Positions 13,078-46,055 are shown, counted from the stretch's first letter. The stretch: DNA of 64,000 nt from an uncultured Gammaproteobacteria bacterium (GCA_964565405.1 CAZMEW010000001.1:59637-123636), one strand, 5' to 3'. Numbers and translations are program-made. The notes: generated from the sequence alone by a model not told the origin.

Positions 13078-13386
13078 GTGCATACCCCCAGGGGGGTATA
13101 CTTTTTGTATATGAAATACATGAACGAAGAAAATAAAGCGAAAGTTATCCGCCGACTCAAGCTTCTTGAGGGGCAAGTACGCGGGCTTCAAAAAATGGTC
13201 GAAAACGATACCTACTGTATTGATGTGATCACGCAAACATCAGCAGTAAAACAAGGTTTGTCGAATGTTGAGGACTTACTTTTGGAAAATCACCTGGATC
13301 ACTGCGTGAGTCACCAAATGAAATCCGGACAAGAAGCTAAAGCAAAGGCTGAAATTATTAAGGTGTATAAACTCAAAAGAAAATAG
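13078..13386 (+). CDS. csoR: CsoR/RcnR family copper-sensing transcriptional repressor (probable start at 13111, MKYMNEENK)
   Basis: Four-helix DUF156 pattern with the conserved metal-ligand context (YCIDV...HLDHCVSHQM). About 85% aa identity to the second copy at 45750..46031. Confidence 0.8.
   Translation: MHTPRGVYFLYMKYMNEENKAKVIRRLKLLEGQVRGLQKMVENDTYCIDVITQTSAVKQGLSNVEDLLLENHLDHCVSHQMKSGQEAKAKAEIIKVYKLKRK
13082..13099. promoter_or_regulatory. putative CsoR operator (GC-rich palindrome) overlapping csoR-I start
   Basis: ATACCCCC-AG-GGGGGTAT inverted repeat just upstream of the probable csoR start (ATG 13111). It is preceded by TTGACG (-35-like). Palindromes of the TACCC-N-GGGTA type are known CsoR sites. 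Confidence 0.5.
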
Positions 13387-13400
13387 TTTGATACACTGGT

Positions 13401-15770
13401 TTGATACATTCACCATTCATTACTATACATAGTATGTATACACAAACGTACAAAGTAAAAGGCATGCATTGTGCCTCATGCTCCTCGGTCATCGAGAAGA
13501 CGTTCAAAAAAGTTGAAGGGGTACAGTCAGCAGAGGTCAACTATGGCACTGAGAAAGCAAAAATTTCTTTTGATCCGTCAAAGACGAATCCTCACGATCT
13601 CTCCAAACACATCGAGCCGTTGGGCTATTCACTGGAGGTTCCACTCAGTGCAGGTGAAATGGGTATGTCTCCTGAAGAACATGCGGCTCACTTGGGACTT
13701 AATCAGTCAAAGAAGGAAAAGCTCGCAGAAGTTGCCGACATGAGAATTAAAGTTCTCTCAGCTACTCCTCTCGCAATTTTTGCTGCACTCGTCATGGGTT
13801 GGGACATTCTTGCAGAGTATCGCGCAGTTCCTGCAATGAGTTATACACTCAAGGAGTTCTTCCACCACCTCCTTCCTATTTTTGCGACATACATTCTCTT
13901 TGTTGTAGGCAAGCCGTATCTCCTTGGTTTTTATAGATTTCTCCGATATGGCAAGGCAAATATGGATACGCTCATTGGTATCGGAACTACTGCCGCCTTT
14001 TTATACAGTTTTGCAGTTACGGCTCTCGAGGAAACGCTGAGTCCTTTTATAAATGTTGAGTATCAATACTACGATGTGACGATCGTGGTTATTACTTTTA
14101 TCGCCCTCGGTAAGTATTTGGAAGCTCGATCGAAAATAAAGACGGGTGACGCTATAGAAAAACTTCTTAATTTGCAAGCCAAGACAGCACTGGTTATCCG
14201 CGACGGTAAAGAAGTAGAAATATCGGTCAATGAGGTAAAACATGGCGACCTGCTTATCGTGAAGCCTGGTGCAAAGATTCCCGTAGACGGCGTGATAACA
14301 GACGGCAGTTCTTTTGTTGATGAATCCATGGTCACAGGGGAACCGATGCCAGCACAGAAAAAGATTGGAGACGGTGTTGTATCGGGAACAATCAATACCA
14401 ATGGTTCGTTTACATTCAAAGCAACAAAAGTTGGATCAGAAACACTCCTCGCCCAGATCATCAAGATGGTTGAAGATGCGCAGGGGAGCAAGGCTCCAAT
14501 CCAGGCACTTGCAGACAAAATTTCTTCAGTCTTTGTACCCATTGTTTTGGTTATCGCTTTTCTCACTCTCGGTGCTTGGCTCATTGTTGGGTACCAGTAT
14601 TTAGGTTTCTCTCAAGCGCTGTCATTTGGTCTCGTTTCGTTTGTAGGCATTCTGGTCATTGCGTGTCCGTGTGCCCTCGGTCTTGCTACTCCGACGGCCA
14701 TTATCGTCGGCGTTGGGAAAGGGGCAAAAGAGGGCATTCTGATCAAAGATGCGGCAACGCTCGAAAAACTCCATAAGGTAAATACAGTTGTAGTTGATAA
14801 AACAGGTACCATAACCCGTGGCAAGCCGACGCTCGTCGATATCCAAAATTTTTCAAAGTTAAAAGACGATGAATTCATATCGATTCTGGCGTCGCTTGAA
14901 AAAAAATCAGAACATCCTATTGCTCACGCGATCTTGAACTATGCACGGGACCTGCCTGCGACTCGAGTGAGCTCGCCGAAATCCGGCAGGCAGGGAAAAA
15001 TAACTCTGCAAGAAGTCTCAAATTTTGAAGCAATACAAGGCAAAGGGCTTAAGGGGACAGTGAACGGGACAGAATATTTTATCGGAAACACAAAACTCAT
15101 AAGTCATCTAAAAGTTTCATTCGATACGACAAAATTGAATGTGTTTACTTCACAAGGCAAAACACCGGTCATTCTTGCAACATCGGAGAAAGTGCTTGGT
15201 TTTGTGATGGTTGCGGATGAAATAAAACCGGAATCAATCGAAGCAGTAAAGAATCTCCGCAAACTTGGAATCAACGTGGTTATGCTTACCGGTGATGATC
15301 AAAAAGCCGCTAAGTACATTGGGTCGCTTGTTGGCATTGATGATGTTGTTGCCCACGTGCTACCACATGATAAGCTCGAAAAGATACAAGAGCTTCAATC
15401 ACAAGGTCGAGTGGTGACTATGGCAGGTGACGGAGTAAACGATGCCCCCGCACTCGCACAAGCCGATGTAGGTATTGCGATGGGGACAGGAACTGATGTA
15501 GCGATAGAGTCGGCCGGCATCACGCTTCTTGGTGGAGATATTTCAAAGCTCGTAAAGGCAATCAAGCTCTCAAAAATAACCATGCGAGGGATTAGGCAGA
15601 ATCTCTTTTGGGCGTTTATCTATAACATCATCGGCATTCCTCTTGCTGCCGGAGTTCTGTATCCGGTATTCGGCTGGCTCCTGAATCCTGTTTTTGCCGG
15701 CTTCGCTATGGCAATGTCGAGTGTCTCTGTTGTGTCGAATTCATTACGAATAAAAAGTAAAAAGTTATAG
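13401..15770 (+). CDS. copA: copper-translocating P1B-type ATPase
   Basis: N-terminal HMA ([13 protein letters not shown]), CPC motif ([10 protein letters not shown]), DKTGTIT phosphorylation site and [11 protein letters not shown] hinge. Confidence 0.9.
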
Positions 15771-15799
15771 TGTGATACACTACTCTCTACAAATACAGT

Positions 15800-16807
15800 A
15801 TGAAAACATATACATTCCATGTTTCCGGCACGCATTGCGCTTCATGTAAAATTTTCATTGAAGATGTTTTGAATGAACACAGTGGTATACAGAACGCGCG
15901 CGTCGATTTAAAACGAGAGATTGTTGAAATTGAAACCGATAGCGATCAAAGCCCTGAAGTATTGGCCCAAGTCCTGACAGAAAAAATTAAAGCAAATGGA
16001 TACAAGGTATCGGTGGAAAAGTCTATCAGAGAAAAACAAAGTACTGACGTTATTTGGCAAGCTGTACCGATAGGGCTTGCGTTTCTCGCGGTATTCTTTC
16101 TTTTGCAAAAATCGGGAATTCTCAATCTCGGTATTGGCGGACAAACGACCCCGGTCACAAGTTTTATCATTGGTCTTATCGCCTCGGTATCAAGTTGTCT
16201 CGCCATCGTTGGCGGTTTGGTCTTGTCCCTTTCAGCCAAAGTATCTCAGGACACTGTAAGCGATACAAAAACGTTCTTGCTTTTCCATACAGGAAGATTG
16301 GTTAGTTTTGCTGTATTAGGCGGAGTTCTCGGAGCGGTCGGCAGTGCAATCGGTATCAATGTTACTTTTACGACAATTCTGGGAATTTTAGCTTCTGTTG
16401 TAATGCTATTGCTCGGTTTAAATTTAATTGGAGTGCTTGCAAAAAATAAAGTTGCGTTACCTTCAGGAATCTTTAATTTCTTCAGAAAAATGGAGCACAA
16501 GACTCTCACGCCGCTCATCATCGGCTTCGCTACATTTTTCTTGCCGTGCGGGTTTACGCAGTCAATGCAGGTTTCCGCACTAGGAAGCGGATCGTTTATG
16601 TCCGGACTTCTTATCATGTTTGCGTTTGCTCTTGGAACGTTACCAATGCTTCTACTTCTTTCTTTCGGATCCGCATCATTTGCACACGGAAAAAATGCGC
16701 CGCTATTTTTTAAATCGGCAGGAGTGGTTGTAATCGGCCTTGGATTGTTTGCACTTCTCGCTGGGCTTGCTGGGCTCGGAATTATTCCTCCGTTATTTAC
16801 TATATAA
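15800..16807 (+). CDS. HMA-domain fused to DsbD_2/UreH-like polytopic permease (putative Cu/metal transporter)
   Basis: N-terminal GTHCASCK HMA motif followed by 6-7 TM helices with an FLPCGFTQ motif. Paralogue of 42451..43443. Confidence 0.55.
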   Translation: MKTYTFHVSGTHCASCKIFIEDVLNEHSGIQNARVDLKREIVEIETDSDQSPEVLAQVLTEKIKANGYKVSVEKSIREKQSTDVIWQAVPIGLAFLAVFFLLQKSGILNLGIGGQTTPVTSFIIGLIASVSSCLAIVGGLVLSLSAKVSQDTVSDTKTFLLFHTGRLVSFAVLGGVLGAVGSAIGINVTFTTILGILASVVMLLLGLNLIGVLAKNKVALPSGIFNFFRKMEHKTLTPLIIGFATFFLPCGFTQSMQVSALGSGSFMSGLLIMFAFALGTLPMLLLLSFGSASFAHGKNAPLFFKSAGVVVIGLGLFALLAGLAGLGIIPPLFTI

Positions 16808-17210
16808 TCACCGTATGAATAAAACTATCTCAATTATCATCACGATCGTACTTATCATAGGCATTGGCATTGTATTTTTTGGACAATCAAGAGAGGACTC
16901 TGATTCGACTGGTGATCAGTCTGCACAAAATGTTGAAATAAGAGATGGTGTCCAATACGTCACGATAACCGCTCGAGGTGGGTATTCGCCCAAAGTATCT
17001 CCCGCACAAGCAAACATCCCAACCAAGTTGATTGTGAAGACAAATGGCACATACGATTGTTCGGCGGCGTTGGTTATTCGATCAATTGGTTATCAAAAAA
17101 TTCTGCCTCAGACGGGTGAGGAAATTATTGATCTGGGCACTCCAGAGAAGGGTATGCTGCAAGGGCTGTGCAGTATGGGAATGTATAATTTTGTCGTCAA
17201 TTTTAACTAG
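16740..17210 (+). CDS. membrane-anchored cupredoxin-like domain protein (probable start 16815, MNKTIS)
   Basis: N-terminal TM anchor. The C-terminal YDCSAAL...GLCSMGMYNFV region matches the C-terminal domain fused to the permease in the second operon (YTCAQSF...FSCSMGMYTGV). Cys/His/Met ligand spacing is cupredoxin-like. Confidence 0.5.
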   Translation: MDCLHFSLGLLGSELFLRYLLYNHRMNKTISIIITIVLIIGIGIVFFGQSREDSDSTGDQSAQNVEIRDGVQYVTITARGGYSPKVSPAQANIPTKLIVKTNGTYDCSAALVIRSIGYQKILPQTGEEIIDLGTPEKGMLQGLCSMGMYNFVVNFN

Positions 17211-17284
17211 TTACTGGTATTTCCTGGATAGTACGGTTCTAACGTCGTCCAGCCGCCCGAGCCAGATGGCGCAGTGTGCCTACG

Positions 17285-17316
17285 AAAGAGAGCTTCAAAG
17301 CTCTCTTTTAGTTTTA
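17285..17316 (+). terminator. Rho-independent terminator-like hairpin after copper operon I
   Basis: AAAGAGAGCTTcaAAGCTCTCTTT hairpin followed by TAGTTTT. Confidence 0.5.
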
Positions 17317-17415
17317 AACTAGCCAAATTTCCACCATGGAAGGTAAGTTCGGTACATACTTGTCGATATTGCTTACCTATTTTATAATTAGTACCGTTTT
17401 GAACTGATACAACCT

Positions 17416-18540
17416 ATGAGACCAAAACAATCCATTGCAGTGTATGTCCCAACCTGGCTCTATCAATTTGATAAAGGTATAACTATCTTTGTGCGAGGTC
17501 TGTATCGTTCGATCAGACAAAGCGGCAAGTATAGACTCCTAAAAATAACACCCTCCATGTGCAGATTTACTTCACGCGAAGAAGCACAGGCATTTGTAAA
17601 AAAACACCACATCCAGCTTGTTATCTACCATAACACCAGAATTCTACCTCAACGTAAATCATGGGAAATAGGACTCGATCATCTTGAATCATGTGTCCCC
17701 TTTCTCAACACAAAAGCAGTACATATTGCTGACGATAAATTTGAGACAAAGCGAATTCTACGTGCAAGGAATCTGCCGGTACTCCCTGATGCTCCAATCA
17801 CCAATCGTACTGAACTTTGGCAATCTATGGAAGAAAATGCGCTTTACGTTGGAAAATTTCATAATTCAGAATCAGGACGAGGAGTAAAATTACTCAAAAG
17901 AACTGCAACTGACTTTTTTGAGTATCTTGACGGATCATGGAGAAAAATTCAGGTACGAGACACAGAAAAGGGGCTCTCAATTTCAGGTAGTCTTGGATTA
18001 TACGCATCCATTGTTATCGGATTATGTATTTTTTCACTTATCCCTCTTATTTTCAACCTATACCCCCTAATTGCTTTATTTGTTATCGCTCTACTAATCA
18101 TCATTATGGGGATCATGCATATCCCCTATAAACTAGACCAAAATTTCACCTATAGTCCACTCATGCTCGAACCTTTCTTTGGTGATGATACTCGCGAATT
18201 CTATTGTTTACGATGTACTGTTATTGGTGATAAGGTCGTTGAATCAGCAAAAAAAACGAACAAAAAAAATGTAACCCCAAACATTTCTCACGGTGGTAAA
18301 GCTACTCATATTACACTTTCGCCAGAACAAATTGATATGGCAATAGCCGCAACCCAGGCGGTCGGCGCAACGTACGCAGGAATTGACCTCCTCTGTTCTC
18401 GTGGCAAGACGGTCATATGTGAAGTTAATGTTGGTCCTATTGGTGTGTACTGTGAACAAACCAAGGTTCCGGTTGGTGAATTACTCGGCGAATATGCGAT
18501 GCATTACTGTGATACATTAGCTTTATCAGGATCTAAATAG
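17416..18540 (+). CDS. RimK-type ATP-grasp protein interrupted by two transmembrane helices
   Basis: The N-terminal half has the Gly-rich ATP-grasp loop (GKFHNSESGRGVKLL). The C-terminal half has ISHGGKATHITLSPEQIDMAIAATQAVGATYAGIDLL...ICEVNVGP (RimK C-terminal signature). Between them are two hydrophobic helices: LGLYASIVIGLCIFSLIPLIF and LYPLIALFVIALLIIIMGIM. Confidence 0.45.
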   Translation: MRPKQSIAVYVPTWLYQFDKGITIFVRGLYRSIRQSGKYRLLKITPSMCRFTSREEAQAFVKKHHIQLVIYHNTRILPQRKSWEIGLDHLESCVPFLNTKAVHIADDKFETKRILRARNLPVLPDAPITNRTELWQSMEENALYVGKFHNSESGRGVKLLKRTATDFFEYLDGSWRKIQVRDTEKGLSISGSLGLYASIVIGLCIFSLIPLIFNLYPLIALFVIALLIIIMGIMHIPYKLDQNFTYSPLMLEPFFGDDTREFYCLRCTVIGDKVVESAKKTNKKNVTPNISHGGKATHITLSPEQIDMAIAATQAVGATYAGIDLLCSRGKTVICEVNVGPIGVYCEQTKVPVGELLGEYAMHYCDTLALSGSK

Positions 18541-18633
18541 AATCAATTATTCACTGCTGTGTACAGCAGGGTATTGCAGTACTCTTTTCTTATATGCTAC
18601 GATGAGTATATTATTTATTAACTGTATTTCTCT

Positions 18634-19287
18634 ATGCAGAAAATGAGCTATACTGTACTCGCTGCAGCAGCCCTCTTATTGATCGGCGCTGGATGTAGCA
18701 AAACACCGTCAGACATGAATACTACTGACTCGATCACGACAGACACCGAAACTGCGACCACAGATGAGGGCAGTACCTCTATGCCTGAGACGACTGATTG
18801 GTCCCTCGGTCAATCAACTGGCGCACAAACAAAAGATGTTCCAAATACTGAAAAAGGAAATGAATACCGCAATACACTTGTTGATAACGAAATCGGTATC
18901 CAGGTAACCTGCCCTCCAGACAAAACATGGAAATGTACACTCGACAGTAGTGGTAAATTCTATATCTATGACTGGAGTTCGAACTATTTTGCACTTCGAG
19001 TGGTGCCCGGCGTATCGAATGCCGACGAAGCAGTTGCACATGAACAGAAGTTCCTTGAGGCAACCTACCCTGGAGTAGTATCAAAAACTTCTTCAGGTGA
19101 TGAAGCAACCTTTACCGTAGGTCCTGATCCAAGTTGGGCAACACAAGTCAACCGAACAGCATGGCTCAAAGTGAAAGAAATAAATGGAAAATTCATCGCA
19201 TGTCATGGTATCAGCTCTGAAGGAAACTTCGAAAATGCTAGTATTGATTATAAGGATATGTGTGATTCTGTGAAAGCAGCCCAATAA
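18634..19287 (+). CDS. hypothetical lipoprotein
   Basis: Signal peptide with lipobox LIGAGC|S, then a Thr/Asp-rich linker. Confidence 0.4.
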   Translation: MQKMSYTVLAAAALLLIGAGCSKTPSDMNTTDSITTDTETATTDEGSTSMPETTDWSLGQSTGAQTKDVPNTEKGNEYRNTLVDNEIGIQVTCPPDKTWKCTLDSSGKFYIYDWSSNYFALRVVPGVSNADEAVAHEQKFLEATYPGVVSKTSSGDEATFTVGPDPSWATQVNRTAWLKVKEINGKFIACHGISSEGNFENASIDYKDMCDSVKAAQ

Positions 19288-19343
19288 TCAAGAAGATAAA
19301 AAACCGAGTATCTCACTCGGTTTTTTGTTTATAATGATTTGTA

Positions 19344-19907: not shown

Positions 19908-20042
19908 ACGAACATAATAATTATACCCGCGAATAAAAATCGTGATTAGTATACCTAAAGAGGATTTAAAATACTAGGATATTGATACATCGCAAAAATT
20001 GCTATAATAGACTATACTGGATATTGTAATTAACCTACATAT

Positions 20043-21269: not shown

Positions 21270-21314
21270 AAATTGATACAAAAAAACTGGCTCACTACCA
21301 GTTTTTTTATTTTT

Positions 21315-27400: not shown

Positions 27401-27814
27401 TTATTGAGTAAGTGTACCTATTTTAAATGAACTAAGTTCGTTTTCAGGTCGTGGTTGTCCACCATGTTTTCCCTCGAACTGTGCCGTACCATCCTTTCCG
27501 CATATAGACAGTATCGCCTTTTCACCTCCTGGATGTTTCGAAATCCATGCAGTTACATCATATACTGAACCACGCACCGCAGTATAACAATCATCTTTTG
27601 AACCATGCTTTTCAACATCTTCAAGGGTAAACATTATATCTCCTGTTACCGTATCCCCAGATGCTTTATTGTCAACTGTATTTCCCTCTGGCGATACTTC
27701 TTTTGCCCCACCCACGGAGTCAGGTGATTCTGATCGCGTACCCGTCTCTACATACGATGAACATCCTGCACCAATGAGTAGGAGTCCTGCTAGTAAAATA
27801 TACATTCTTTTCAT
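27401..27814 (-). CDS. exported lipoprotein with cytochrome b5-like heme-binding domain
   Basis: Lipobox LLIGAGC|S. C-terminal HGSKDDCYTAVRGSVYDVTAWISKHPGG...FEGKHG matches the cyt b5 heme-binding HPGG pattern. Confidence 0.55.
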   Translation of the reverse strand: MKRMYILLAGLLLIGAGCSSYVETGTRSESPDSVGGAKEVSPEGNTVDNKASGDTVTGDIMFTLEDVEKHGSKDDCYTAVRGSVYDVTAWISKHPGGEKAILSICGKDGTAQFEGKHGGQPRPENELSSFKIGTLTQ

Positions 27815-30703: not shown

Positions 30704-31270
30704 TTATTTCAACTGGAGTAACAGCGCAATATAGAGGGCTATTGGTAATTGTGTTCGAAGCGCTCTCAGTGCTCGTGAAGCAGCCATTTTCAGACTTGCC
30801 TCACTCTTCCCTAATACTTGAGCAATTTCTTTATATGAGAGTTCATCCCACACACGCAATACAATAATTTCACGTTCTTTTTCTGAAAGTTTTTGCAGCG
30901 CATGTTCGACTTTATACAACATATCCTTATTCTCCATGTCTATTTTCAAACTTGACGTATCAGCAATGTCGAAATCCTCAGGAAACTGCGTGGTTTTTTT
31001 GTGTGACCGATAGTAATCAACAAGTGTATTTCTTGCAATGCGATAGAGCCAGGAAGCGGCGCTCCCTTTGGTCGGGTCAAACGATCCCACATGCTCAAGT
31101 GCTTTCATAAAAGTGTCCGATACAATATCCTCTGCGGCTTGTTTATCTTTAATTCTAAAAAATGAATAATCGTAGAGTTTTTTTACAAATCCATCATACA
31201 CTTCGCCAAAAGCTGCTTGATTGCCTTTTTGTGCACTTAGCAACTTTTCCTCAAAAAAACCTATAGCCAT
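30704..31270 (-). CDS. ECF-type RNA polymerase sigma-70 factor
   Basis: Region 2 (DIVSDTFMKALEH...ASWLYRIARNTLVDYYR) and region 4 HTH (SYKEIAQVLGKSEASLKMAASRALRAL). Confidence 0.8.
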   Translation of the reverse strand: MAIGFFEEKLLSAQKGNQAAFGEVYDGFVKKLYDYSFFRIKDKQAAEDIVSDTFMKALEHVGSFDPTKGSAASWLYRIARNTLVDYYRSHKKTTQFPEDFDIADTSSLKIDMENKDMLYKVEHALQKLSEKEREIIVLRVWDELSYKEIAQVLGKSEASLKMAASRALRALRTQLPIALYIALLLQLK

Positions 31271-33949: not shown

Positions 33950-33955
33950 ATCCCT

Positions 33956-34507
33956 TTATTTAGAAATTTCTTTTTTGAGCATTGCACGACCTCTGGCAAT
34001 CCGAACTCCAACGGTTGAAATCGGTATCGCGAGCACCTCAGCAATTTCTTTATACTCCATTTCTTCAAAATAATATAGCACCAGAACTTCACGATATTTG
34101 GGCGATACACCCATCAACATTTTTTCAAGTTCATCCCGATCCTCTTTTTTGAGCAAATCATCCTCAAGCGTAGGCGATGGTTTGGTTGGAATATTGATCA
34201 AGGTATCAAAATCAAAAAAGCTAACCTGCTCTCTTCCCCTTTTTTTGATTACGTTGATAAAGGTGTTATGTGCAATCCGATAGAGCCATGTTGAGAATTT
34301 TCTTTCTACCTGAAAGCTCTGAATATTTTGGTATGCTTTGATAAAAACTTCTTGTACCGCATCTTCAAGATCTTCGTAGGTAAATAAAAACCGCCTCCCA
34401 TACCGAAGCATCTTTTGCTCATAACGATTGAATAAGGCCGTATAGGCTTCTGTTTTTCCCTGCTGAACCTCACGAGCCAATGCTTCATCAGTTGGTATTT
34501 CCACCAT
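33956..34507 (-). CDS. ECF-type RNA polymerase sigma-70 factor
   Basis: Region 2 (DAVQEVFIKAYQN...STWLYRIAHNTFINVIK) and region 4 (EYKEIAEVLAIPISTVGVRIARGR). Confidence 0.8.
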   Translation of the reverse strand: MVEIPTDEALAREVQQGKTEAYTALFNRYEQKMLRYGRRFLFTYEDLEDAVQEVFIKAYQNIQSFQVERKFSTWLYRIAHNTFINVIKKRGREQVSFFDFDTLINIPTKPSPTLEDDLLKKEDRDELEKMLMGVSPKYREVLVLYYFEEMEYKEIAEVLAIPISTVGVRIARGRAMLKKEISK

Positions 34508-37550: not shown

Positions 37551-37868
37551 TTATGGGGCGTTGGTTTTTTTCTTTTTCAATTCTGTACCTGTGACAATTA
37601 AATAAATCAAAACGCTTACTATTGCAGCAAAAAAACACCATACTGATGTAAAATTTTCGTAATACAACCAGGAAGCGATAAACGCAAGAAAGGCAATGAG
37701 ACCGAACAATATCTTGACCATGTATCTACCAGACAATGCTCCTGCCCCGACGACAATCGCAATATATACTGCAGCCGCTGCCGTACCAAAAGGAGCAGTG
37801 TATTCGTAATAGATACAATGATTCATGATTGAGGCAGGTTGTGGGTGTATAAGAAAATTCGTATACAA
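37551..37868 (-). CDS. hypothetical membrane protein
   Basis: 105 aa with 3 TM helices. Confidence 0.3.
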   Translation of the reverse strand: MYTNFLIHPQPASIMNHCIYYEYTAPFGTAAAAVYIAIVVGAGALSGRYMVKILFGLIAFLAFIASWLYYENFTSVWCFFAAIVSVLIYLIVTGTELKKKKTNAP

Positions 37869-38237
37869 CTATACTCCAAGTACAATTCCGGCCAGACAAA
37901 ACATTGTCAGTATCCGGCGCCTCAACCCAAAAGATTCAAGGCTTCGAATAGCAAATGGTACAAATGCTGGCCACCAAAAAAGAGCAAAGAATAAAAATAA
38001 CGCGCTCAGCAGTATCACTACTTGTCTCGAATTCTGTATATTCAACCAGAGCATTCCTTCAATTGCCTGTTGGATTGCAAAAATGATTGGAATCGTGGCC
38101 AGTGGAAGGAATTTTTTATTTTTTGTTTTTGCAATTGATGCGACACCGGTTACGCCGAGTAGTGCGCTTGCAGTGAAACTAGCTGTTGCTGAAAAACACA
38201 TATTATTCCGTAGTTTTTCCGTCAAAGTGTTCATCAT
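37869..38237 (-). CDS. hypothetical membrane protein
   Basis: 122 aa with 3-4 TM helices, contiguous with the previous ORF. Confidence 0.3.
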   Translation of the reverse strand: MMNTLTEKLRNNMCFSATASFTASALLGVTGVASIAKTKNKKFLPLATIPIIFAIQQAIEGMLWLNIQNSRQVVILLSALFLFFALFWWPAFVPFAIRSLESFGLRRRILTMFCLAGIVLGV

Positions 38238-38598: not shown

Positions 38599-38686
38599 AT
38601 AATTTACTCAATATTAATCTAATATAATGTACCTATAATTTATCGCACATACCTACTTGCTGACGCGACTCCCTATCATGTGAATA

Positions 38687-40426
38687 TCAACCCGGAACAA
38701 CGGTTTGACAATATTGTCCCGTAAATTCGGTAGGACACGAACATTCGTATTCACCATACACTCCGCCCCATGCCGGTCTCATCATGACACCATGGTTAGC
38801 GCAGAAATTGCCGACCGGATCATCTTGAACCAGGTTCATAATAATGGTGAAAGTAGTAGAAGCTGCATTGTAGTTCATAGTCGCAGCCTGGTACAATGTC
38901 GCAGTTGCGGTAAATGGTCCAGGCGTGAGTAAATTAAACAAATCAAATGCTAGCGACCCAAAATAGAATGAAGAATCTATAACGGGGTAACCGAGAACAT
39001 GTTCGACTGCTTCTGTACTAGTAGGAATCACATCGCTATTAAGTGCAGCCAACGATGTAAACAAACCATTACTGGTCGAAGTAGGAAGGTCTAGTATGAG
39101 TGCTCCGCTATCAGGCGCACAATACGGTACCGGCGTATCAGTATCTTCAAAACAAATTCCGGAGTAGTCACTCGAATCAAATGTAAAATTGCTCAATGCT
39201 GTTATAACTGGGTTAGCTTTCCCGACCGTAAGTATTGCTGTCGTTGATGTTGCGGCATACGTCGCGGTTGCCGCCTGTGTCGCAGTGATGGTGGTAGAGC
39301 CGGCATTTACCATAGTAACCGTGTTTCCACTAATCGTCGCTGTCGAGGTATTACTGCTCGTATAGGTAATCACTCCATCACTAGTACTTGTGATCGATAT
39401 AGAGAACGGACTATCTCCATATGTTTTTGATATACTTGCCAGTTCAATCGTTGGGATACTGATACAGGAGACTGAAATCGATGTAACATCGCCCTGCATT
39501 GTTCCACTGCCATTGGAAATACTGCACGTCTGTGCAGGAACTGTTGGATGGGTCTCAACAATGACTGAATAGATACTTCCTTTTGAAATACGTGAACCGA
39601 ATTCAAAGACTCCATCTGCTGTCAGTGTAAGTACTTGTCCAGTATTTAGTCGTAACACTAGAGTTCCGAGTAAGCCAGACGCTGTACCCCCAAGCGTATA
39701 GCTCTGTGATCCACCGCCCGTAAAAATACTTTCAAATGGATTTGCGAATGGCGTTGGTCCACACTGCACTTGAATCGTATTGATCGAATGATCCGCTACT
39801 ACACCACTCCCATTTTTTGACACATAGCAGAGTTGTTTGCCTGGCACGAGTGGTTTTGCTGTTACCCTATACTCATCACCCGAGGCAAGTAAGTGTGAAA
39901 AGTTGAATTGCGCTGTATCTTCAGGATGTATCATGAGTTGCTCTCCCCCATTGTTTGACACAATAACTTGATCAACAATACCCGAGATAGTTCCGCCAAT
40001 AGTATATTTATTTTTTTGTGATTGCGTCTCTGGGCTTCGTAATAATTGCCCGTACGTTAATACATCACCGGTAGTCACTGTATTTACGAGATTTCTTGTT
40101 GATGAAAAAAAATTACCTGTTCCCACTGAAAGACCAAGCGGTTCAAGAATGATACTTTGATTTAATTCTTGAAATATTTTTACAGCCCTAAATGTCTTTG
40201 TTCCAAAAAAATCTGTCTCATTTCCATGAGACCCCGGTCCTGTATCCGAAACCGGCGCACCATGGCGATTTAGGAACTCTTGCAGCCGTTGTACATCCTG
40301 ACCTTGGTCTCCGAATCGCAAATTTCTCTCGAATAATTCCTGACTGTGAACAGCACTCATCATTCCAAAAACAGAGAGTATGATAATTGTTAGGTTGATT
40401 ATCGAAAAATGGCGGTATTCGCGCAT
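38687..40426 (-). CDS. secreted protein with peptidoglycan-binding domain, Ser/Thr-rich repeats and C-terminal EGF-like Cys motif
   Basis: Signal peptide. PG_binding_1-like GDQGQDVQRLQEFLNRHGAPVSD...FGTKTFRAVKIFQ, then a long S/T-rich beta region. C-terminal YECSCPTEFTGQYCQ fits CxCx5Gx2C. Confidence 0.5.
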   Translation of the reverse strand: MREYRHFSIINLTIIILSVFGMMSAVHSQELFERNLRFGDQGQDVQRLQEFLNRHGAPVSDTGPGSHGNETDFFGTKTFRAVKIFQELNQSIILEPLGLSVGTGNFFSSTRNLVNTVTTGDVLTYGQLLRSPETQSQKNKYTIGGTISGIVDQVIVSNNGGEQLMIHPEDTAQFNFSHLLASGDEYRVTAKPLVPGKQLCYVSKNGSGVVADHSINTIQVQCGPTPFANPFESIFTGGGSQSYTLGGTASGLLGTLVLRLNTGQVLTLTADGVFEFGSRISKGSIYSVIVETHPTVPAQTCSISNGSGTMQGDVTSISVSCISIPTIELASISKTYGDSPFSISITSTSDGVITYTSSNTSTATISGNTVTMVNAGSTTITATQAATATYAATSTTAILTVGKANPVITALSNFTFDSSDYSGICFEDTDTPVPYCAPDSGALILDLPTSTSNGLFTSLAALNSDVIPTSTEAVEHVLGYPVIDSSFYFGSLAFDLFNLLTPGPFTATATLYQAATMNYNAASTTFTIIMNLVQDDPVGNFCANHGVMMRPAWGGVYGEYECSCPTEFTGQYCQTVVPG

Positions 40427-40534
40427 ATTAATATGTGTGTAAGTATATTAAATTTTAATATACTGTACAAGCTATATCCATTCATACCTATATTTGAATA
40501 AAAAAATACCGCTTTGTTAAACGATATTTTTTTG

Positions 40535-40565
40535 GCTCGGGGACAGGGTGCTATGCTATTCGAAC
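40535..40565. repeat. tRNA-Gln 3'-end fragment (candidate att core, direct repeat of 56103..56123)
   Basis: GCTCGGGGACAGGG (14/14) and ATTCGAAC (8/8) are identical to the acceptor-3'/T-arm of tRNA-Gln at 56103..56123. The two blocks are split by a 9-nt insertion, in the same orientation. Confidence 0.45.
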
Positions 40566-40570
40566 ATCTC

Positions 40571-40628
40571 ACGAAAACCTTCGGGTTTTCGTGTACTTTC
40601 CTCAGAATGTGAAACCTCACGGTTTCAC
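40571..40628. other. two adjacent perfect hairpins (ACGAAAACC-ttcg-GGTTTTCGT and GTGAAACC-tcac-GGTTTCAC)
   Basis: Read directly from the sequence. The stems share GAAAACC/GGTTTTC-type arms; one has a UUCG tetraloop. Confidence 0.5.
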
Positions 40629-40663
40629 CCTTCCCTCGTTCGAATCTCCTTTAATCTCCAATA

Positions 40664-40701
40664 TAATAATAACTCCCGGCTTAAGCCGGGAGTTATTATT
40701 A
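40664..40701. terminator. 17-bp perfect hairpin TAATAATAACTCCCGGC-ttaa-GCCGGGAGTTATTATTA (bidirectional terminator-like)
   Basis: Perfect inverted repeat flanked by A/T runs, downstream of the minus-strand gene 40847..41728. Confidence 0.5.
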
Positions 40702-40846
40702 GCTCCCGACCCCGGTCTAGAACACTGGAAATAACCAATCAACCGTGAGATTTTTAGGAGTCCAGTATACCATACTTCTGGACGGGGGTCGATCAGAGGG
40801 AAAAAGAGACAAATGAGACACTATAGAGGGGTCTTTTAGGACTGTC

Positions 40847-41728
40847 TCATTTTGACTGTTTTTCGAGGATCTCCTCCCTCTTTTTCTCAAGCTGTCCTGC
40901 TTCTAAAAGCATCTGAACGCCATTCGGAGTTTCATGCTTTTTAAGGATCGCTTCATACTCGTATTTGTCTTGCCCCTTATATCCCACTGGAATGCGTCGA
41001 ATATAGTTAGCTTCACTCCCGTTGATATAATGGAACATGTATTGATGGAATACTTGTCCAGAATCATCGGTAAAGTTCTCGAGCTTGGATGCAAAGCCAT
41101 TATCTATGTGTTGATTCATCGCAAGACAGAGAAACTCTTCTTTGCCTTTGCCATCTGCATGATCCCAGACTTCAGAGATAAGCTGTGCCCGCATCCAGAT
41201 AAAATCTCGATGCCCGTTGTTATTCATGAGTAATTCCCATGCTTGCTTACGCGCAGTTTCATTGTCACTAATAATCATCTGAATGAGCATGTTGTATATC
41301 TCATTGTATCCCATGCCTGCATATTTCCTGATCGCTGCTACACCTTTTTCATTATCCTCTCTAATTTTCTCCGCAAGAGTCGTGATTTCTTTGAATACTA
41401 CTCTATGTCTTTCTTTTTTCTCTTCAGCGGTTGCTTTGCGATGAAATACACCCCCAGGAGAATCGACGACGTATAAGAAGGCATCCTTTTTATATTCTTT
41501 AATTGAATGCGCTTCTACTTGATTAAAGGTAACAATAAAAAATGGGTTTACCTTGTCTAGGATATCTCGGTAGTTTTCGTACTCGGTATAATGAACTTCA
41601 CCAATATCGTATTCAGCGATGAGCTTAGTAAAGTACTCGTTTTCTTTGATCTGACGAGGCTTTGCTTGGGAAGTGTCTTTGAGAGGTGTGAATCCGATAA
41701 TAACCGTATGGATGGTAGGCATAGGCAT
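40847..41728 (-). CDS. hypothetical protein
   Basis: 293 aa, soluble, no motif I recognise. Confidence 0.4.
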   Translation of the reverse strand: MPMPTIHTVIIGFTPLKDTSQAKPRQIKENEYFTKLIAEYDIGEVHYTEYENYRDILDKVNPFFIVTFNQVEAHSIKEYKKDAFLYVVDSPGGVFHRKATAEEKKERHRVVFKEITTLAEKIREDNEKGVAAIRKYAGMGYNEIYNMLIQMIISDNETARKQAWELLMNNNGHRDFIWMRAQLISEVWDHADGKGKEEFLCLAMNQHIDNGFASKLENFTDDSGQVFHQYMFHYINGSEANYIRRIPVGYKGQDKYEYEAILKKHETPNGVQMLLEAGQLEKKREEILEKQSK

Positions 41729-41745
41729 ATATTAAGGATATATAC

Positions 41746-42228
41746 CTAGCTTATACCTGAAGGATTATTTTTTGCAATACATCTTTTTAAAAAAAGATAC
41801 ACGCTACTTACGACAAAAATGGAAATTATAATACTCCCCAAGATATCTAAAATATGATGTACTCCAGTCAAAATCCTTCCCACTCCTACCAATACTCCTA
41901 AAATAAGTAATAAGATGCCAACTTTTTTATTAACATAATAAACGCTTAATGCAAGAGTAAATACTAACAATGCATGTTCAGAGGGAAATCCATTGTTTGG
42001 GATATGAGAAACAAGTGGTAAAAAATTCCCTTCTACAAAAGGACGTGGGTTGATAATAAATATACTCAAAACCCTGCCAACCATAAAGGCAACTAACAAA
42101 GAAAGTATGGTTAAAAGTATGAATTGTAATCTTACCTTTTTTGGCGAAAACAAAATAAAAAGAAATGTTATTCCTATAACAATAAGATAAAGATATTTAG
42201 CTAGAAAAATAATTATACTTTCTGTCAT
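41746..42228 (-). CDS. PAP2 family membrane phosphatase
   Basis: PAP2 motifs present: INPRPF (KX6RP), GFPSEHA (PSGH) and GRILTGVHHILD (SRX5HX3D). Confidence 0.55.
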   Translation of the reverse strand: MTESIIIFLAKYLYLIVIGITFLFILFSPKKVRLQFILLTILSLLVAFMVGRVLSIFIINPRPFVEGNFLPLVSHIPNNGFPSEHALLVFTLALSVYYVNKKVGILLLILGVLVGVGRILTGVHHILDILGSIIISIFVVSSVYLFLKRCIAKNNPSGIS

Positions 42229-42233
42229 ACATA

Positions 42234-42449
42234 CTATGCCCCAAGCTTTACCTCATACCCTAATTTTTGAATAACTCCAAAAATAATTTCAATTGAAATA
42301 TTACTCTCATCAAACGTCACGTTCGTCTCATTTTTTGCATAACTTGTTTTAGATTCTTTCACACCCATATCTTCAAGCTCACCATCAATATTCATGGCAC
42401 AACTGGTACAATGCATGCCGTTAATTTTTAGTTTTATTGTTTTTTCCAT
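42234..42449 (-). CDS. copZ: copper chaperone CopZ-like HMA protein
   Basis: 71 aa with a GMHCTSCAMNI metal-binding motif. Confidence 0.8.
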   Translation of the reverse strand: MEKTIKLKINGMHCTSCAMNIDGELEDMGVKESKTSYAKNETNVTFDESNISIEIIFGVIQKLGYEVKLGA

Positions 42450-42450
42450 A

Positions 42451-43443
42451 CTATAAGATATTGATTACTCCCGTGTACATTCCCATACTACATGAGAACA
42501 CAAGTTTTCCTGGTTTGCTTGGGGCAGTAAATTCGACTACACCTTCTTCTCCTGGCGCCACGACTTTCTGTATACCAAGCTTAGGAATCGTAAATGACTG
42601 AGCACAAGTATACCCATTGATATTTTTTAAGTTTATTTTTACTTTTTCACCAGCTTTTACCGATAGACTTCTAGGGCTATATCCCGATGGGCCAATTTGA
42701 ATGGTAAGATCAGAATTTGAAGTAACTGTAGTAGAAGTTACAGGCTCTGAAGACAAATTTAGACTTGTTCCACTAAGTACAATCGCTCCTTTAAGATTGT
42801 AGAGTGCTAAGAGAATAATAGCGACAGCAGCTACTTTGAAGAACTTTTTTTGATATGCGTCACCAAGTTTGGTCGCAAAGTACCCAAGGATAAAAAACAG
42901 TGGTGAAGTTCCAAGTATAAAAGCAAAAAGTACTGCTGCACCGTACCATGGGCTTCCTGAGGCAATCGAGAGAGCCATCATACCCTGTGTAATGCCACAG
43001 GGAATAAATACCGTAAACGCACCAAGTAGGGCTGGCGCAAACATATCTTTACTCTTTGACTGATTTCGTACCAGACGCGTAAGGAATTTTGGTGGTTGAA
43101 TCACAAAATAACGAAAAAAAGGATGGACATTGAGAAGATTGAGAGCAGTACCGATCATAAAAATCGCAACTACAAACTGCATAATTGCTTGAGCCTTCAC
43201 TGAAAGCTGAAAAATTGATCCGAACCACCCAAGAAGGAAACCAAGTATTGTATAGGCGACAAGTTTTGCGGCAATAAAGAAAAGGATCGGCTTTGCATTT
43301 CCTTTATTAGCTCCTTCTTGCAGTCGTTCTTGTTCACGCTCAGCAATCGTGGTTGCCAGAAGTCCTCCTTGTACTGCGAGACACGTGAGTCCGCCGGTAA
43401 TCAGTCCTGTGAAAAAAATTACTAACAAATTTGATTGTCCCAT
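42451..43443 (-). CDS. DsbD_2/UreH-like permease fused to C-terminal cupredoxin-like domain
   Basis: TM core with FIPCGITQG (compare FLPCGFTQS in 15800..16807). C-terminal YTCAQSF...FSCSMGMYTGV is homologous to the separate ORF 16815..17210. Confidence 0.55.
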   Translation of the reverse strand: MGQSNLLVIFFTGLITGGLTCLAVQGGLLATTIAEREQERLQEGANKGNAKPILFFIAAKLVAYTILGFLLGWFGSIFQLSVKAQAIMQFVVAIFMIGTALNLLNVHPFFRYFVIQPPKFLTRLVRNQSKSKDMFAPALLGAFTVFIPCGITQGMMALSIASGSPWYGAAVLFAFILGTSPLFFILGYFATKLGDAYQKKFFKVAAVAIILLALYNLKGAIVLSGTSLNLSSEPVTSTTVTSNSDLTIQIGPSGYSPRSLSVKAGEKVKINLKNINGYTCAQSFTIPKLGIQKVVAPGEEGVVEFTAPSKPGKLVFSCSMGMYTGVINIL

Positions 43444-43453
43444 AGTGAAAATA

Positions 43454-45748
43454 TTATAATTTCATGCTTTTAATTCGGAGTGAATTCGTGACGACGGTCA
43501 CGCTTTCAAATGCCATAATCGCCCCAGCGATTGCAGGACTGAGTGTCCACCCAAAGAATGGGTAGAGAATGCCCGCTGCAACCGGAATGCCGAATGAGTT
43601 ATATGCAAATGACCAGGTCAGGTTCTGCCAAATCGTCTTATTAGTTCTTTGTGCCAGATGAATTGCTTCAGCGACTTTTACAATATCGCCCTTCAGAAGC
43701 ACAATGTCAGAGCTTTCGATTGCAATATCTGATCCATCACTCATAGAAATTGCAACATCAGCTTGGGCTAGTGCCGGAGCATCATTTACCCCGTCCCCAA
43801 TCATTGCTACTTTATGACCTTTCTTTTGCAACTCTTTAATGATATTTAGTTTATCTTCGGGCTGTACCCCGGCATAGACTTCATCAATGCCGAGACCTTT
43901 GGCAACGGCCTCACCAGTTGTTTTATTATCTCCTGTTGCCATGACAACTTTTAGTCCGAGTTTTTTGAGTTTGGTAATTTCTGCTTGAGCTTCTATTTTT
44001 ATTTGGTCATGAATTTTAATCAGTGAAAGCACTTCTCGGTCGTCTGAAAGATACAGCTCGCGACCTTTTTCAAAACGTGTACCATCAAAATCTTTTTGTA
44101 CGCTTGCTTCTGACTGTTTAATAACTTCAGCAATAAATGAACGAGAACCTAGATAATACTTTTTACCCTGATACTCTGCAGTCACTCCTTTACCCGCAAC
44201 CTCTACTACATGAGTAATCGGCAGCGCAGGTACCTTATTTTCTTTCATCCACGATGCGACACTTTCAGAAACCGGATGTTTTGAAGATTTGGTGATTGCG
44301 TAAATAAGTGATTGTTTGAACGAGATGTCCTTGAGATCGCACGTGTGATTTTTGTCTTTACAATACACCCCCTCAATTCCAAGTGTATTATGTGTAAGAG
44401 TTCCAGTTTTATCAAAGACAAGTGCCGTAACTTTGGCGAGTTTTTCCAAGCTTTCTGCGTTTTTGATAAGTATCCCTCGTTCAGCTCCTCGGCCAACACC
44501 GGTAATGATTGCGGTAGGAGTAGCAAGCCCGAGCGAGCACGGACATGCGATCACCAAGACAGCCATGGTAGTAGAAATCGCAAATGCTAGAGCGTGGGTT
44601 AATCCAAGAGTTGCGGGTCCGAATATCATCCATGATGCGAAGGTAATAACTGCAAGCCCAAGTACTACATAGACAAATATGCCAGATATTTTATCTGCAA
44701 TACGCTCAATCGGTGCTTTGGAGTTTTGAGCATTTTCAACAATAGAAATAATATGAGCCAAGGCAGTATCTTTCGGGTCTTTCGTAACTTTGATATGAAG
44801 TATTCCCTGAAAATTCTGTGTTCCTGCGAATACCGTATCTTTTGGTCCTTTGTCTACGGGAATTGATTCACCAGTTAAAGTTGCTTCATCAATCGAACTC
44901 GACCCCTCGATAATACTCCCATCAAGTGGAATGCGCTCATGTGGTTTTACAATAATAATATCTCCAATGGTTACTTTTTCAATTGAGACACTCATTTCTT
45001 TTCCCTTACGGATGACGGTTGCCGTTTTACTCGTAAGTCCTGCGAGTTTTTGTAGAGCATCATTTGTCTTTTTCTTTGCCCGATCTTCGAGATGTTGTCC
45101 AAGAGCAATCAGACCAATGACCACGATAACAACATCATAAAAATTAGAGGTAACATCAATATATGGCGCAAGAACGTTTTCAAACGCAGTTACGATAAAC
45201 GAATAGATAAAAGCGACGATAGTTGAAACACCGACCAGGGTATCCATGTTTGCAGTGCCGGTTTTTAGAAATATCCATACTGCTTTGATGTACTTTCTTC
45301 CAATACCAAATAACACAAACGAAGCGAAAATAGGCATCAGATGATGAAATACCTCATAAATGTTTTCTGACATCATGGGAATAATGTTGTTTTGTGAAAG
45401 TACTTCCCACAACATCATCACAAAAGAAAAGAATATCATCGGAATGACGAATTTCATTTCAAACCCCACATTTCCTTTTTCTGAAGCCGAACCTTCATGA
45501 TGATGCTCAGTACTAGTGGACATAGATTTTTCACCTACGTCTTCAAGGGTGTAGCCAAATGGAGAAATCACTCCCGAGAGTTTTACAGTATCCATAGGAG
45601 CTTCAGTAAAATTAACGATTGCTTTTTCTTGATTGAGTTTTACTGAAACAGAGGTGATCCCAGGAACTTTACGGAGTTTTCTTTCTATCAGCGACACACA
45701 ACTTGCGCAAGTCATGCCATTTACTTTATACACGTGCTCTACTGCCAT
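43454..45748 (-). CDS. copA: copper-translocating P1B-type ATPase
   Basis: HMA (GMTCASCVSLIE), CPCSLGLATP, DKTGTLT and [11 protein letters not shown] motifs. Confidence 0.9.
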   Translation of the reverse strand: MAVEHVYKVNGMTCASCVSLIERKLRKVPGITSVSVKLNQEKAIVNFTEAPMDTVKLSGVISPFGYTLEDVGEKSMSTSTEHHHEGSASEKGNVGFEMKFVIPMIFFSFVMMLWEVLSQNNIIPMMSENIYEVFHHLMPIFASFVLFGIGRKYIKAVWIFLKTGTANMDTLVGVSTIVAFIYSFIVTAFENVLAPYIDVTSNFYDVVIVVIGLIALGQHLEDRAKKKTNDALQKLAGLTSKTATVIRKGKEMSVSIEKVTIGDIIIVKPHERIPLDGSIIEGSSSIDEATLTGESIPVDKGPKDTVFAGTQNFQGILHIKVTKDPKDTALAHIISIVENAQNSKAPIERIADKISGIFVYVVLGLAVITFASWMIFGPATLGLTHALAFAISTTMAVLVIACPCSLGLATPTAIITGVGRGAERGILIKNAESLEKLAKVTALVFDKTGTLTHNTLGIEGVYCKDKNHTCDLKDISFKQSLIYAITKSSKHPVSESVASWMKENKVPALPITHVVEVAGKGVTAEYQGKKYYLGSRSFIAEVIKQSEASVQKDFDGTRFEKGRELYLSDDREVLSLIKIHDQIKIEAQAEITKLKKLGLKVVMATGDNKTTGEAVAKGLGIDEVYAGVQPEDKLNIIKELQKKGHKVAMIGDGVNDAPALAQADVAISMSDGSDIAIESSDIVLLKGDIVKVAEAIHLAQRTNKTIWQNLTWSFAYNSFGIPVAAGILYPFFGWTLSPAIAGAIMAFESVTVVTNSLRIKSMKL

Positions 45749-45749
45749 A

Positions 45750-46031
45750 TTACTTTCGTTTTAATTTATACACTTTTAAAACTTCTTCTTGTGCTTTACC
45801 AACCTGCCCTGAAGACATTTGATGATGCACACAATGCCCTAAATGATTTTCAAGGAGCGCATCTTCAACACCTGAAAGACCCTGCTTTACGGCAGATGTT
45901 TGAGTGATTACGTCTATGCAGTAGGTATCATTCTCAATCAACTTTTGTAGTCCACGAACTTGCCCTTCTATGAGTTTGAGACGACGAATTATTTTTGCTT
46001 TACTTTTTTCATTCATGTATTTCATATACAT
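45750..46031 (-). CDS. csoR: CsoR/RcnR family metal-sensing repressor
   Basis: 93 aa, about 85% identical to the first CsoR. Same YCIDV...H.HCVHHQM ligand context. Confidence 0.8.
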   Translation of the reverse strand: MYMKYMNEKSKAKIIRRLKLIEGQVRGLQKLIENDTYCIDVITQTSAVKQGLSGVEDALLENHLGHCVHHQMSSGQVGKAQEEVLKVYKLKRK

Positions 46032-46036
46032 CGTAG

Positions 46037-46055
46037 TATACCCCTAGGGGGTATA
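46037..46055. promoter_or_regulatory. putative CsoR operator palindrome upstream of csoR-II
   Basis: TATACCCC-TA-GGGGGTATA, 6 nt upstream of the csoR-II start codon. Same architecture as 13082..13099. Confidence 0.5.

Follow-up and report, generated by a model that had tools for sequence, protein, structure and literature searches.

Copper-efflux operons of the csoR-copA-copZ type are known from Firmicutes and Actinobacteria, with B. subtilis, L. monocytogenes and, for CsoR, M. tuberculosis as examples. Here we describe two related operons and the accessory genes that they carry in a 64-kb stretch of DNA (GCA_964565405.1, CAZMEW010000001.1:59637-123636), the whole of which is called the window below. 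Like the known operons, both have a CsoR regulator with a Cys-His-Cys Cu(I) site, a GC-rich palindromic operator within the promoter, a P1B-1 CopA with an HMA domain and a small HMA protein or domain. Unlike them, they add a membrane core of the DsbD_2 family and a CupA-like cupredoxin domain, and the partner of the HMA domain of this accessory module is not CopA alone but also the membrane core, to which it is fused or beside which it is encoded in almost every locus.

CupA is known from the copY-cupA-copA operon of S. pneumoniae (CupA, PDB 4F2E; metal-binding domain, MBD, of CopA, 4F2F) and has been described as confined to a few streptococci (PMC7558416). By contrast, the CupA-like domain found here is widespread in Patescibacteria and Chloroflexota. 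The window cupredoxins are about 23% identical to the pneumococcal domains, are predicted to lie outside and not in the cytoplasm, have a DsbD_2 core and an HMA domain as partners instead of a cupredoxin-type CopA domain, and have CsoR rather than CopY as the regulator.

The membrane core recalls the DsbD/CcdA/ScsB electron carriers (TC 5.A.1, LysE superfamily). In both, six transmembrane (TM) helices form two three-helix repeats with an essential-looking cysteine in TM1 and in TM4, and a membrane Cys pair stands between a cytoplasmic CxxC protein, in our case so predicted, and an outer Cys-containing beta-sandwich domain; ScsB is in addition tied to copper tolerance. However, the window cores belong to Pfam family DsbD_2 and not DsbD_TM, carry (S/T)C(L/M)A...GG and PCG(T/F)TQ motifs whereas those of DsbD/CcdA/ScsB are of the PCxxP type, and have metal-binding partners (HMA, CupA-like) in place of thioredoxin folds. 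In MerT-MerP and MerTP, an HMA domain is likewise coupled to a small membrane protein bearing cysteines, in some cases as a fusion, and metal passes by thiol ligand exchange from a domain on one side of the membrane to a domain on the other, as we also propose for the module. The membrane protein families are nonetheless unrelated, the HMA domain is periplasmic in Mer and predicted to be cytoplasmic in the module, and the module has a third domain, the cupredoxin, and a direction that is likely outward.

HMA-DsbD_2 proteins of COG2836, which are of the same fusion type as a protein of operon 1, have been computationally predicted as members of the CsoR regulon in gut Firmicutes under the name 'heavy metal transport/detoxification protein' (PMC4938975). 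That study noted a DUF2318 partner domain, whereas the cupredoxin partner, complementary splits and triple fusions reported below are undescribed in it, and we found no description of them in the literature searched. The accessory module is new in arrangement and built from known parts. Copper handling in Patescibacteria, which are tiny, host-dependent bacteria, is essentially unstudied.

Two operons and their accessory module

Gene content was read from an open reading frame (ORF) listing of the window together with Pfam annotation. The genes of operon 1 and then of operon 2 are as follows.

13105..13386, plus strand: csoR1, starting at TTG 13105 or ATG 13111 (PF02583, 5.4e-25)
13434..15770, plus strand: copA1, a P1B-1 Cu(I) ATPase with an N-terminal HMA domain (Pfam HMA, E1-E2 ATPase and HAD; TIGR01511; motifs)
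15800..16807, plus strand: HMA-TM0-DsbD_2 fusion (PF00403, 6e-12; PF13386, 5e-31)
16815..17210, plus strand: membrane-anchored CupA-like cupredoxin protein (Cupredoxin_1, 2.8e-6)
45750..46031, minus strand: csoR2 (PF02583, 2.4e-24)
43454..45748, minus strand: copA2, a P1B-1 Cu(I) ATPase (Pfam, TIGR01511)
42451..43443, minus strand: DsbD_2-Cupredoxin_1 (CupA-like) fusion (DsbD_2, 1.9e-33; Cupredoxin_1, 1.2e-13)
42234..42449, minus strand: free HMA (CopZ-like) protein of 71 amino acids, without a signal peptide (PF00403, 1e-9)

ORFs and Pfam bore out the original prediction of two copper operons with this gene content and these domain fusions at these places. Its overall positions also stood, but not its starts: initial ORF calls had begun csoR1 at GTG 13078, within the operator, and copA1 at 13401, whereas csoR1 most probably starts at 13105 or 13111 and copA1 at ATG 13434, and the cupredoxin gene begins at ATG 16815 rather than at 16740.

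As had been proposed, the same three accessory domains are present in both operons but are fused differently, operon 1 having an HMA-core protein and a free cupredoxin, and operon 2 a core-cupredoxin protein and a free HMA protein. In the HMA-core protein, a CxxC HMA domain is followed by an extra TM helix and then by a six-TM core with a Cys in TM1 and a PCG motif in TM4. The operon 2 fusion has a six-TM core, with Cys21 and Cys149, and a C-terminal cupredoxin domain with a Cys...CSMGM site; this site is also present in the free cupredoxin of operon 1, which begins with a TM anchor (MNK and 20 hydrophobic residues). Across 62 sequences, neither of the core cysteines, Cys21 and Cys149, varies. 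The AlphaFold2 (AF2) model of the core-cupredoxin fusion shows six TM helices followed by a beta domain, and that of the HMA form a ferredoxin-like HMA domain, the extra TM helix (residues 83-104) and the same six helices, giving seven in total.

The label 'permease' first given to the membrane core was an assumption, since the core is of the DsbD/CcdA lineage of electron carriers. Both cores clearly match DsbD_2, and the sister model DsbD_TM (PF02683), whose cutoff is 27.1 bits, reaches 26.6 with the core-cupredoxin fusion and has no match to the HMA form. Pfam found no thioredoxin-fold domain in either operon. For the MerT family, the NCBIfam models MerTP and MerT_CopZ match the HMA stretch alone, far under their cutoffs, and fold searches of the PDB with the membrane core gave cupredoxin matches, with no transporter or CcdA among the matches listed.

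The best PDB sequence match of both window cupredoxin domains is pneumococcal CupA (E 1.8e-4 and 1.2e-5, the latter for operon 1 against 2MRY/4F2E with the ligands aligned), and the next relevant match is the cupredoxin-type MBD of pneumococcal CopA. The CupA ligands, a first Cys and then Cys-x-Met-x-Met (here CSMGM), align column for column with both window domains and also with the CopA MBD, and are lacking from the B. anthracis Cupredoxin_1 structure (4HCF). On the strength of this alignment we classify the window domains as CupA-like. They appear to be homologues of CupA and not functional equivalents, because both window CopA proteins have HMA domains at their N-termini (Pfam) and the cupredoxins are predicted to lie outside.

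To place these fusions in a wider set, we built a profile from the two window cores, which retrieved 6605 50%-identity clusters at E <= 1e-3; despite this number, the module is annotated merely as 'sulfite exporter TauE/SafE family protein'. Local domain hidden Markov models, applied to the best 150 of the 6605 clusters, assigned 74 to the core-cupredoxin form, 32 to HMA-core, 29 to the core only and 15 to a triple fusion, HMA-core-cupredoxin. When ten triple-fusion candidates were run against Pfam, HMA and DsbD_2 were found in all ten and Cupredoxin_1 as well in six. The metal-site motifs are conserved across the 150 clusters, with C...CxMxM in 83 of 93 cupredoxin domains, CxxC in 46 of 47 HMA domains and both TM cysteines in 134 of 150 cores.

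Gene neighbourhoods were compared in two sets of 80, genome loci for the core-cupredoxin form and metagenome loci for the HMA-core form. Core-cupredoxin genes have a same-strand HMA domain downstream in 75 of the 77 genome loci with room for one, starting -4 to +423 nt (median 14) after the gene, and in one of the two exceptions the HMA gene lies just upstream. In all metagenome loci with room, the HMA-core gene has a free cupredoxin gene after it (56/56, or 64/64 by a looser room criterion). The core-cupredoxin genome loci come from Patescibacteria and Chloroflexota and include Longilinea arvoryzae KOME-1 (locus L063), so that a cultured carrier of the module is available. Most loci also encode CopA near the module, yet 13 of the 56 with room on both sides have none within 7 kb, Chloroflexota and Patescibacteria loci among them. 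Because the pairing is near-universal while CopA is missing from these 13 loci, the conserved unit is the three-domain module and not the pump. These results support the conclusion that the three accessory domains form one module with a near-universal complementary split; the gene pairs and the existence of HMA-DsbD_2-Cupredoxin_1 triple fusions agree with the earlier proposal that they act as one functional unit. The split, complementary and triple-fused forms make an unusually clean 'Rosetta stone' case, in which the three proteins as one membrane-spanning unit can be tested.

Charge distribution and gene fusions bear on the orientation of the module. Over 54 homologues, the mean number of Lys and Arg residues is 4.3, 6.3 and ~3.9 in loops 1-2, 3-4 and 5-6 and 0-0.2 in the N-terminus and in loops 2-3 and 4-5, a distribution that by the positive-inside rule turns both ends of the core outward. 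In addition, signal peptides are lacking from the HMA domains, and in triple fusions seven TM helices separate the HMA domain from the cupredoxin. On these grounds, the HMA domain is predicted to be cytoplasmic and the CupA-like domain extracytoplasmic, which is a prediction and not proof. The free cupredoxin of operon 1 is predicted to be oriented outward likewise, through its N-terminal anchor.

A possible Cu(I) relay and its rivals

The module has three Cys-bearing stations, predicted to lie in the cytoplasm (HMA CxxC), in the membrane (the TM1 and TM4 cysteines) and outside (cupredoxin Cys, Cys, Met, Met). In the mechanism that we propose, the HMA domain would pick up Cu(I) in the cytoplasm and hand it by thiol ligand exchange to the Cys pair of the membrane core, which would in turn pass it to the outer CupA-like site, to be held or released outside. 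Such a chaperone-to-chaperone relay would work beside ATP-driven CopA or independently of it. The module probably moves either copper or reductant across the membrane. We take a thiol-based Cu(I) relay, from HMA through the TM Cys pair to the CupA-like site, to be the likeliest mechanism, and give it roughly even chances. The more inclusive proposal is tentative: that the HMA domain, the DsbD_2 core and an outward CupA-like domain make up an obligately three-part, ATP-independent Cu(I) thiol relay, previously uncharacterised, widespread in Patescibacteria and Chloroflexota and moved by phage-like and conjugative islands. If true, an ATP-independent relay would be a copper exporter of a new class, alongside the P-type ATPases, and would carry the CupA family well outside the streptococci, in a form whose topology is inverted. 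CupA-type copper sites would not be a streptococcal curiosity.

Several points weigh against such a relay. No energy source for net export is evident, and the literature searched yielded no experiments on any member of the module. The core is in the DsbD/CcdA lineage, whose known members carry electrons and not metal (PMC4608589), and pneumococcal CupA is held to face the cytoplasm, where it feeds the cupredoxin-type domain of CopA (PMC7558416). The analogy with CupA is only partial, given a CopA with an HMA domain and a cupredoxin predicted to be outside. The topology is itself a prediction, and the AF2 model of the HMA form (hmaPerm1) is of low confidence (pLDDT 67.5). Finally, the census loci are mutually related (39-88% identity); their counts overstate the number of independent events.

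The ancestry of the core is also the starting point of the main rival, a copper-dedicated, DsbD-like reductant conduit, which we regard as unlikely though well ahead of the other alternatives. Electrons would run from a cytoplasmic CxxC donor (HMA or thioredoxin) through the TM1 and TM4 cysteines to the two Cys residues of the outer CupA-like domain. Kept reduced in this way, that domain would bind the Cu(I) that CopA pumps out, reduce Cu(II) or, in the manner of ScsB acting on ScsC, repair disulfides caused by copper. The match of the core to DsbD_2 (1.9e-33), with DsbD_TM just under its cutoff, fits its DsbD/CcdA descent (PMC4608589), and cysteines in TM1 and TM4, conserved in 134 of 150 cores, are as in CcdA and DsbD. 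A Cys pair is present in all three parts, the S1 cysteines of CupA can reduce Cu(II) in vitro (PMC7558416), CopA is adjacent in most loci, and a metal island at locus L007 has DsbA-like and DsbB genes too. HMA domains, however, are known as metal carriers and not as electron donors, neither operon encodes a thioredoxin-fold partner, and 13 of 56 loci are without a nearby CopA. Moreover, the obligatory pairing with HMA is easier to explain by metal hand-over.

A relay running inward, like that of MerP and MerT, appears improbable. The outer CupA-like domain would capture Cu(I) and pass it through the core to the HMA domain, serving copper acquisition or delivery to CopA or CsoR. This would agree with an architecture that mirrors MerP/MerT/NmerA, with the frequent lack of copA or csoR beside the Chloroflexota pair, with one 61%-identical homologue annotated from Nitrosocosmicus, and with DsbD-family genes, here assumed to be of the same subfamily, that rank with the most strongly induced when copper is limiting in the ammonia-oxidising archaeon Nitrososphaera viennensis (PMC7785015). 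In the window and in most Patescibacteria loci, by contrast, the module is CsoR-repressed together with an efflux pump and would be switched on under copper excess, when uptake would be counter-productive.

Origin and mobility of the cassettes

The two CsoR proteins, put at about 85% amino acid and 75% nucleotide identity in the original prediction, measured 81.5% and 72.3% in pairwise comparison. The CopA proteins are 44% identical, and the accessory parts 30% (membrane core), 28% (cupredoxin) and 25% (HMA). Nucleotide similarity between the operons is essentially confined to csoR. An assembly duplication was ruled out because the DNA-level alignment is good for csoR alone, where identity reaches at best 72%.

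Each operon has relatives at 81-91% amino acid identity elsewhere, as against 30-44% between the operons. More than 100 homologues of the operon 1 HMA-core protein, named from many Patescibacteria lineages, are 82-90% identical to it, and copA1 and the core are 81% identical at the nucleotide level to a Parcubacteria genome whose transketolase is only ~40% identical in amino acids to that of the window. Relatives of the operon 2 fusion are found at 86% and of CopA2 at 84%. By these comparisons, operon 1 is a cassette that has moved laterally between Patescibacteria. The names carried by close homologues are also the sole ground on which we place the host of the window, a small-genome bacterium, in Patescibacteria, an exact look-up of the window fusion protein having given no match.

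The cassettes are also mosaic, as seen in five loci in which percentages are identities to the window copies.

L170: fusion 81%; CopA 84% to CopA2; CsoR 93% to CsoR2
L171: the other split form, HMA-core 44% to operon 1; CopA 81% to CopA2; CsoR 73-76%
L007: fusion 78%; CopA 68% to CopA1; CsoR 36-40%
L001: HMA-core 88%; CopA 89% to CopA1; CsoR 61% to CsoR1
L005: accessory genes not compared; CopA 88% to CopA1; CsoR 90% to CsoR1

CopA2-type pumps are found with either split form (L170 versus L171). The CsoR proteins of related cassettes for the most part share 30-50% identity with the window copies, also in cassettes whose CopA is at 55-70%, and the window CsoR pair, at 81%, is an outlier. Slow evolution of CsoR as the cause of this pair is ruled out by the 30-50% identities in related cassettes, and recent gene conversion of csoR by the differences between the copies, which affect codon position 3 in 51 of 91 codons and positions 1 and 2 in 17 and 9. 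The mosaic identities, the CsoR outlier and the exclusion of recent conversion together show exchange of the regulator-promoter unit, the pump and the accessory module between cassettes. CsoR, CopA and the accessory genes thus recombine independently and have separate histories.

Because each operon is closer to other genomes than to its partner in the window, and because the parts recombine independently, the comparisons support two independently acquired cassettes and not an in-genome duplication. The earlier view that the duplication was ancient or acquired and no recent tandem event is supported by these identities, although 'paralogous' is better replaced by xenologous. That the operons are plain in-genome paralogues of an old duplication, with free HMA and cupredoxin proteins that are ordinary CopA chaperones and fusions without functional meaning, draws on their common gene order, the 81% CsoR identity and the commonness of csoR-copA-copZ operons, but is very improbable and already contradicted by the closer relatives in other genomes, the position of operon 2 inside an att-bounded island, the pairing of CopA2-type pumps with either split form, and complementary pairing and triple fusions far too regular for chance adjacency.

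Two further observations concern gene content around related cassettes. Several loci, L015, L016 and L008 among them, have a further cupredoxin gene, free-standing and placed between csoR and copA. In the Parcubacteria genome of L001, a divergent multicopper-oxidase-like gene (3995-5218) adjoins an operon-1-type cassette.

Operon 2 rides on an integrated element, as the original prediction had it. The features of this island outside the copper genes are as follows.

40535..40548, plus strand: attL, GCTCGGGGACAGGG, which repeats the 3' end of tRNA-Gln in direct orientation
41746..42228, minus strand: PAP2 (undecaprenyl-diphosphatase-like) gene (PF01569, 7.8e-15)
46362..49469, plus strand: ParB-like/N6_N4 DNA methylase, terS-like and terL genes (Pfam; phrog_498, 6e-83; terS families, ~1e-7; phrog_38 terL, 7e-78)
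51691..52986, plus strand: large serine recombinase (integrase) with Resolvase, Recombinase and Zn_ribbon_recom domains (phrog_95, 1e-68)
54182..55957, minus strand: SF1 helicase (Pfam UvrD/Viral_helicase1; phrog_1967)
56103..56174, minus strand: tRNA-Gln (ARAGORN), whose 3' 14 nt (56103-56116) are attR

The exact 14-mer is present at 40535 and at 56103-56116 alone (0.00 expected by chance), and the repeats bracket 15.6 kb (40535..56116) that enclose operon 2 and the PAP2 gene along with the serine integrase, terminase, ParB-methylase and helicase genes. DUF4352 and DUF4238 genes also lie in the island, and neither Pfam nor PHROGs recognised capsid or tail genes in it. Judged by its gene content and ends, the island is a phage-derived, tRNA-targeted element, either a remnant or satellite-like. 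The PAP2 gene is on the same strand as the HMA gene of operon 2, 5 nt downstream of it, and is possibly the last gene of that operon. A PAP2 gene 50% identical to it is found in the L007 metal island, where it adjoins DsbB, lipoprotein signal peptidase and DsbA-like genes. A perfect 19+19-nt palindrome without a loop (40664-40701), which the island has immediately within its left boundary, may be a terminator or a recombination site.

The same integration site is used elsewhere. At the related locus L010, ftsX (60% identical) is followed by tRNA-Gln and then by a cop cassette between 18-nt and 11-nt repeats of the tRNA end, which suggests that the tRNA-Gln site is a recurrent hot spot, possibly with tandem islands. 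The L010 element at this ftsX-tRNA-Gln site (4085-8790) is a minimal cop island of ~4.5 kb. Homologues of the serine integrase adjoin cop cassettes in eight other loci, five of them at 49-55% identity over ~400 amino acids and three weaker or partial (34-41%), and one of the eight also has a terL homologue. Other operon-2-type cassettes lie beside type IV secretion system (T4SS) and relaxase genes or between two tyrosine integrases. Mobility of the cassettes, through tRNA-Gln islands, serine integrases and a T4SS neighbour, bears on the spread of metal resistance in groundwater and sediment communities.

Operon 1 lies directly downstream of a tRNA-Asn (12890..12964, plus strand; ARAGORN). A repeat search found no att-type repeat of this tRNA, one chance 12-mer alone being present, and no integrase lies near operon 1. 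Directly 3' of the operon is a gene for a RimK-like ATP-grasp protein with internal hydrophobic helices (17416-18540, plus strand); a RimK-like gene 100% identical to it also trails the cassette on an independent short contig (L009).

Regulators, pumps and other genes of the window

Both regulators score far above the PF02583 cutoff (88 and 86 bits against 22.8). Because the RicR-like NCBIfam model, although matched by csoR1 with E 6e-23, scores below its own cutoff (81 versus 175 bits), we assign the window proteins to the CsoR family and not to the RicR equivalog. In CsoR2, Cys38, His63 and Cys67 have the spacing C-x25-H-x3-C, which we take to be the Cu(I) ligand spacing of CsoR as in M. tuberculosis C36/H61/C65, and CsoR1 has the same motif (YCID...NHLDHC).

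Each csoR gene is preceded by a promoter with a predicted operator.

13073..13102, plus strand: promoter and predicted CsoR operator of operon 1 (-35 TTGACG, 13073-13078; palindrome TACCCCCAGGGGGGTA, 13083-13098; -10 TATACT, 13097-13102)
46035..46063, minus strand: promoter and predicted CsoR operator of operon 2 (-35 TTGATA; palindrome TACCCCCTAGGGGTA, 46039-46053; -10 TATACT)

The operon 2 promoter is the top-scoring promoter-like site of its region (10 of 12 matches). The window contains just two copies of the pattern TACCCC-N2-6-GGGGTA (chance expectation 0.00), and both palindromes lie just 5' of csoR between a TTGAnn -35 and a TATACT -10 element. The two operons share one predicted CsoR operator design, and both repressors therefore probably cross-regulate both operons.

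The alignment of csoR1 with csoR2 holds from the start region onward, and the exact start codons are uncertain (candidates MYMKYM, MKYM and MNE). Because the -10 element TATACT ends 3-9 nt 5' of the candidate csoR starts in both operons (13097-13120; 46016-46040), the csoR transcripts may be leaderless.

Both pumps exceed the cutoff of the copper P1B model TIGR01511 (CopA1 614.5 bits and CopA2 544.7 bits, cutoff 397). We assigned them to P1B-1 by CPC in TM6, YN in TM7, M-x-x-S-S in TM8 and the DKTGT phosphorylation site. CopA1 reads ACPCALG, IYNIIG, MAMSSVS and DKTGT in translation, and CopA2 ACPCSLG, AYNSFG, MAFESVT and DKTGT, in which the first Ser of M-x-x-S-S is replaced by Glu and the Met and second Ser are kept. 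At 44% identity, copA2 is of a different lineage from copA1. Its homologues in Patescibacteria are 84-68% identical to it, and the closest CopA1 relative in the list above is that of L001. The regulators and pumps are canonical, and the operons themselves are ordinary copper-efflux operons.

Some genes elsewhere in the window deserve mention. A DUF6629 membrane-protein gene (37551-38237, minus strand) is broken by a single in-frame TAG into two neighbouring ORFs, one matching the N-terminal and the other the C-terminal half of the profile, and represents a pseudogene or else a site of read-through. A gene for a protein with a cytochrome b5-like haem/steroid-binding domain (27401-27814, minus strand) adjoins mscL and is unusual for a reduced-genome bacterium. 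Two genes for extracytoplasmic function (ECF)-type sigma factors (30704-31270 and 33956-34507, minus strand) each have unannotated same-strand ORFs immediately downstream, which could encode anti-sigma factors.

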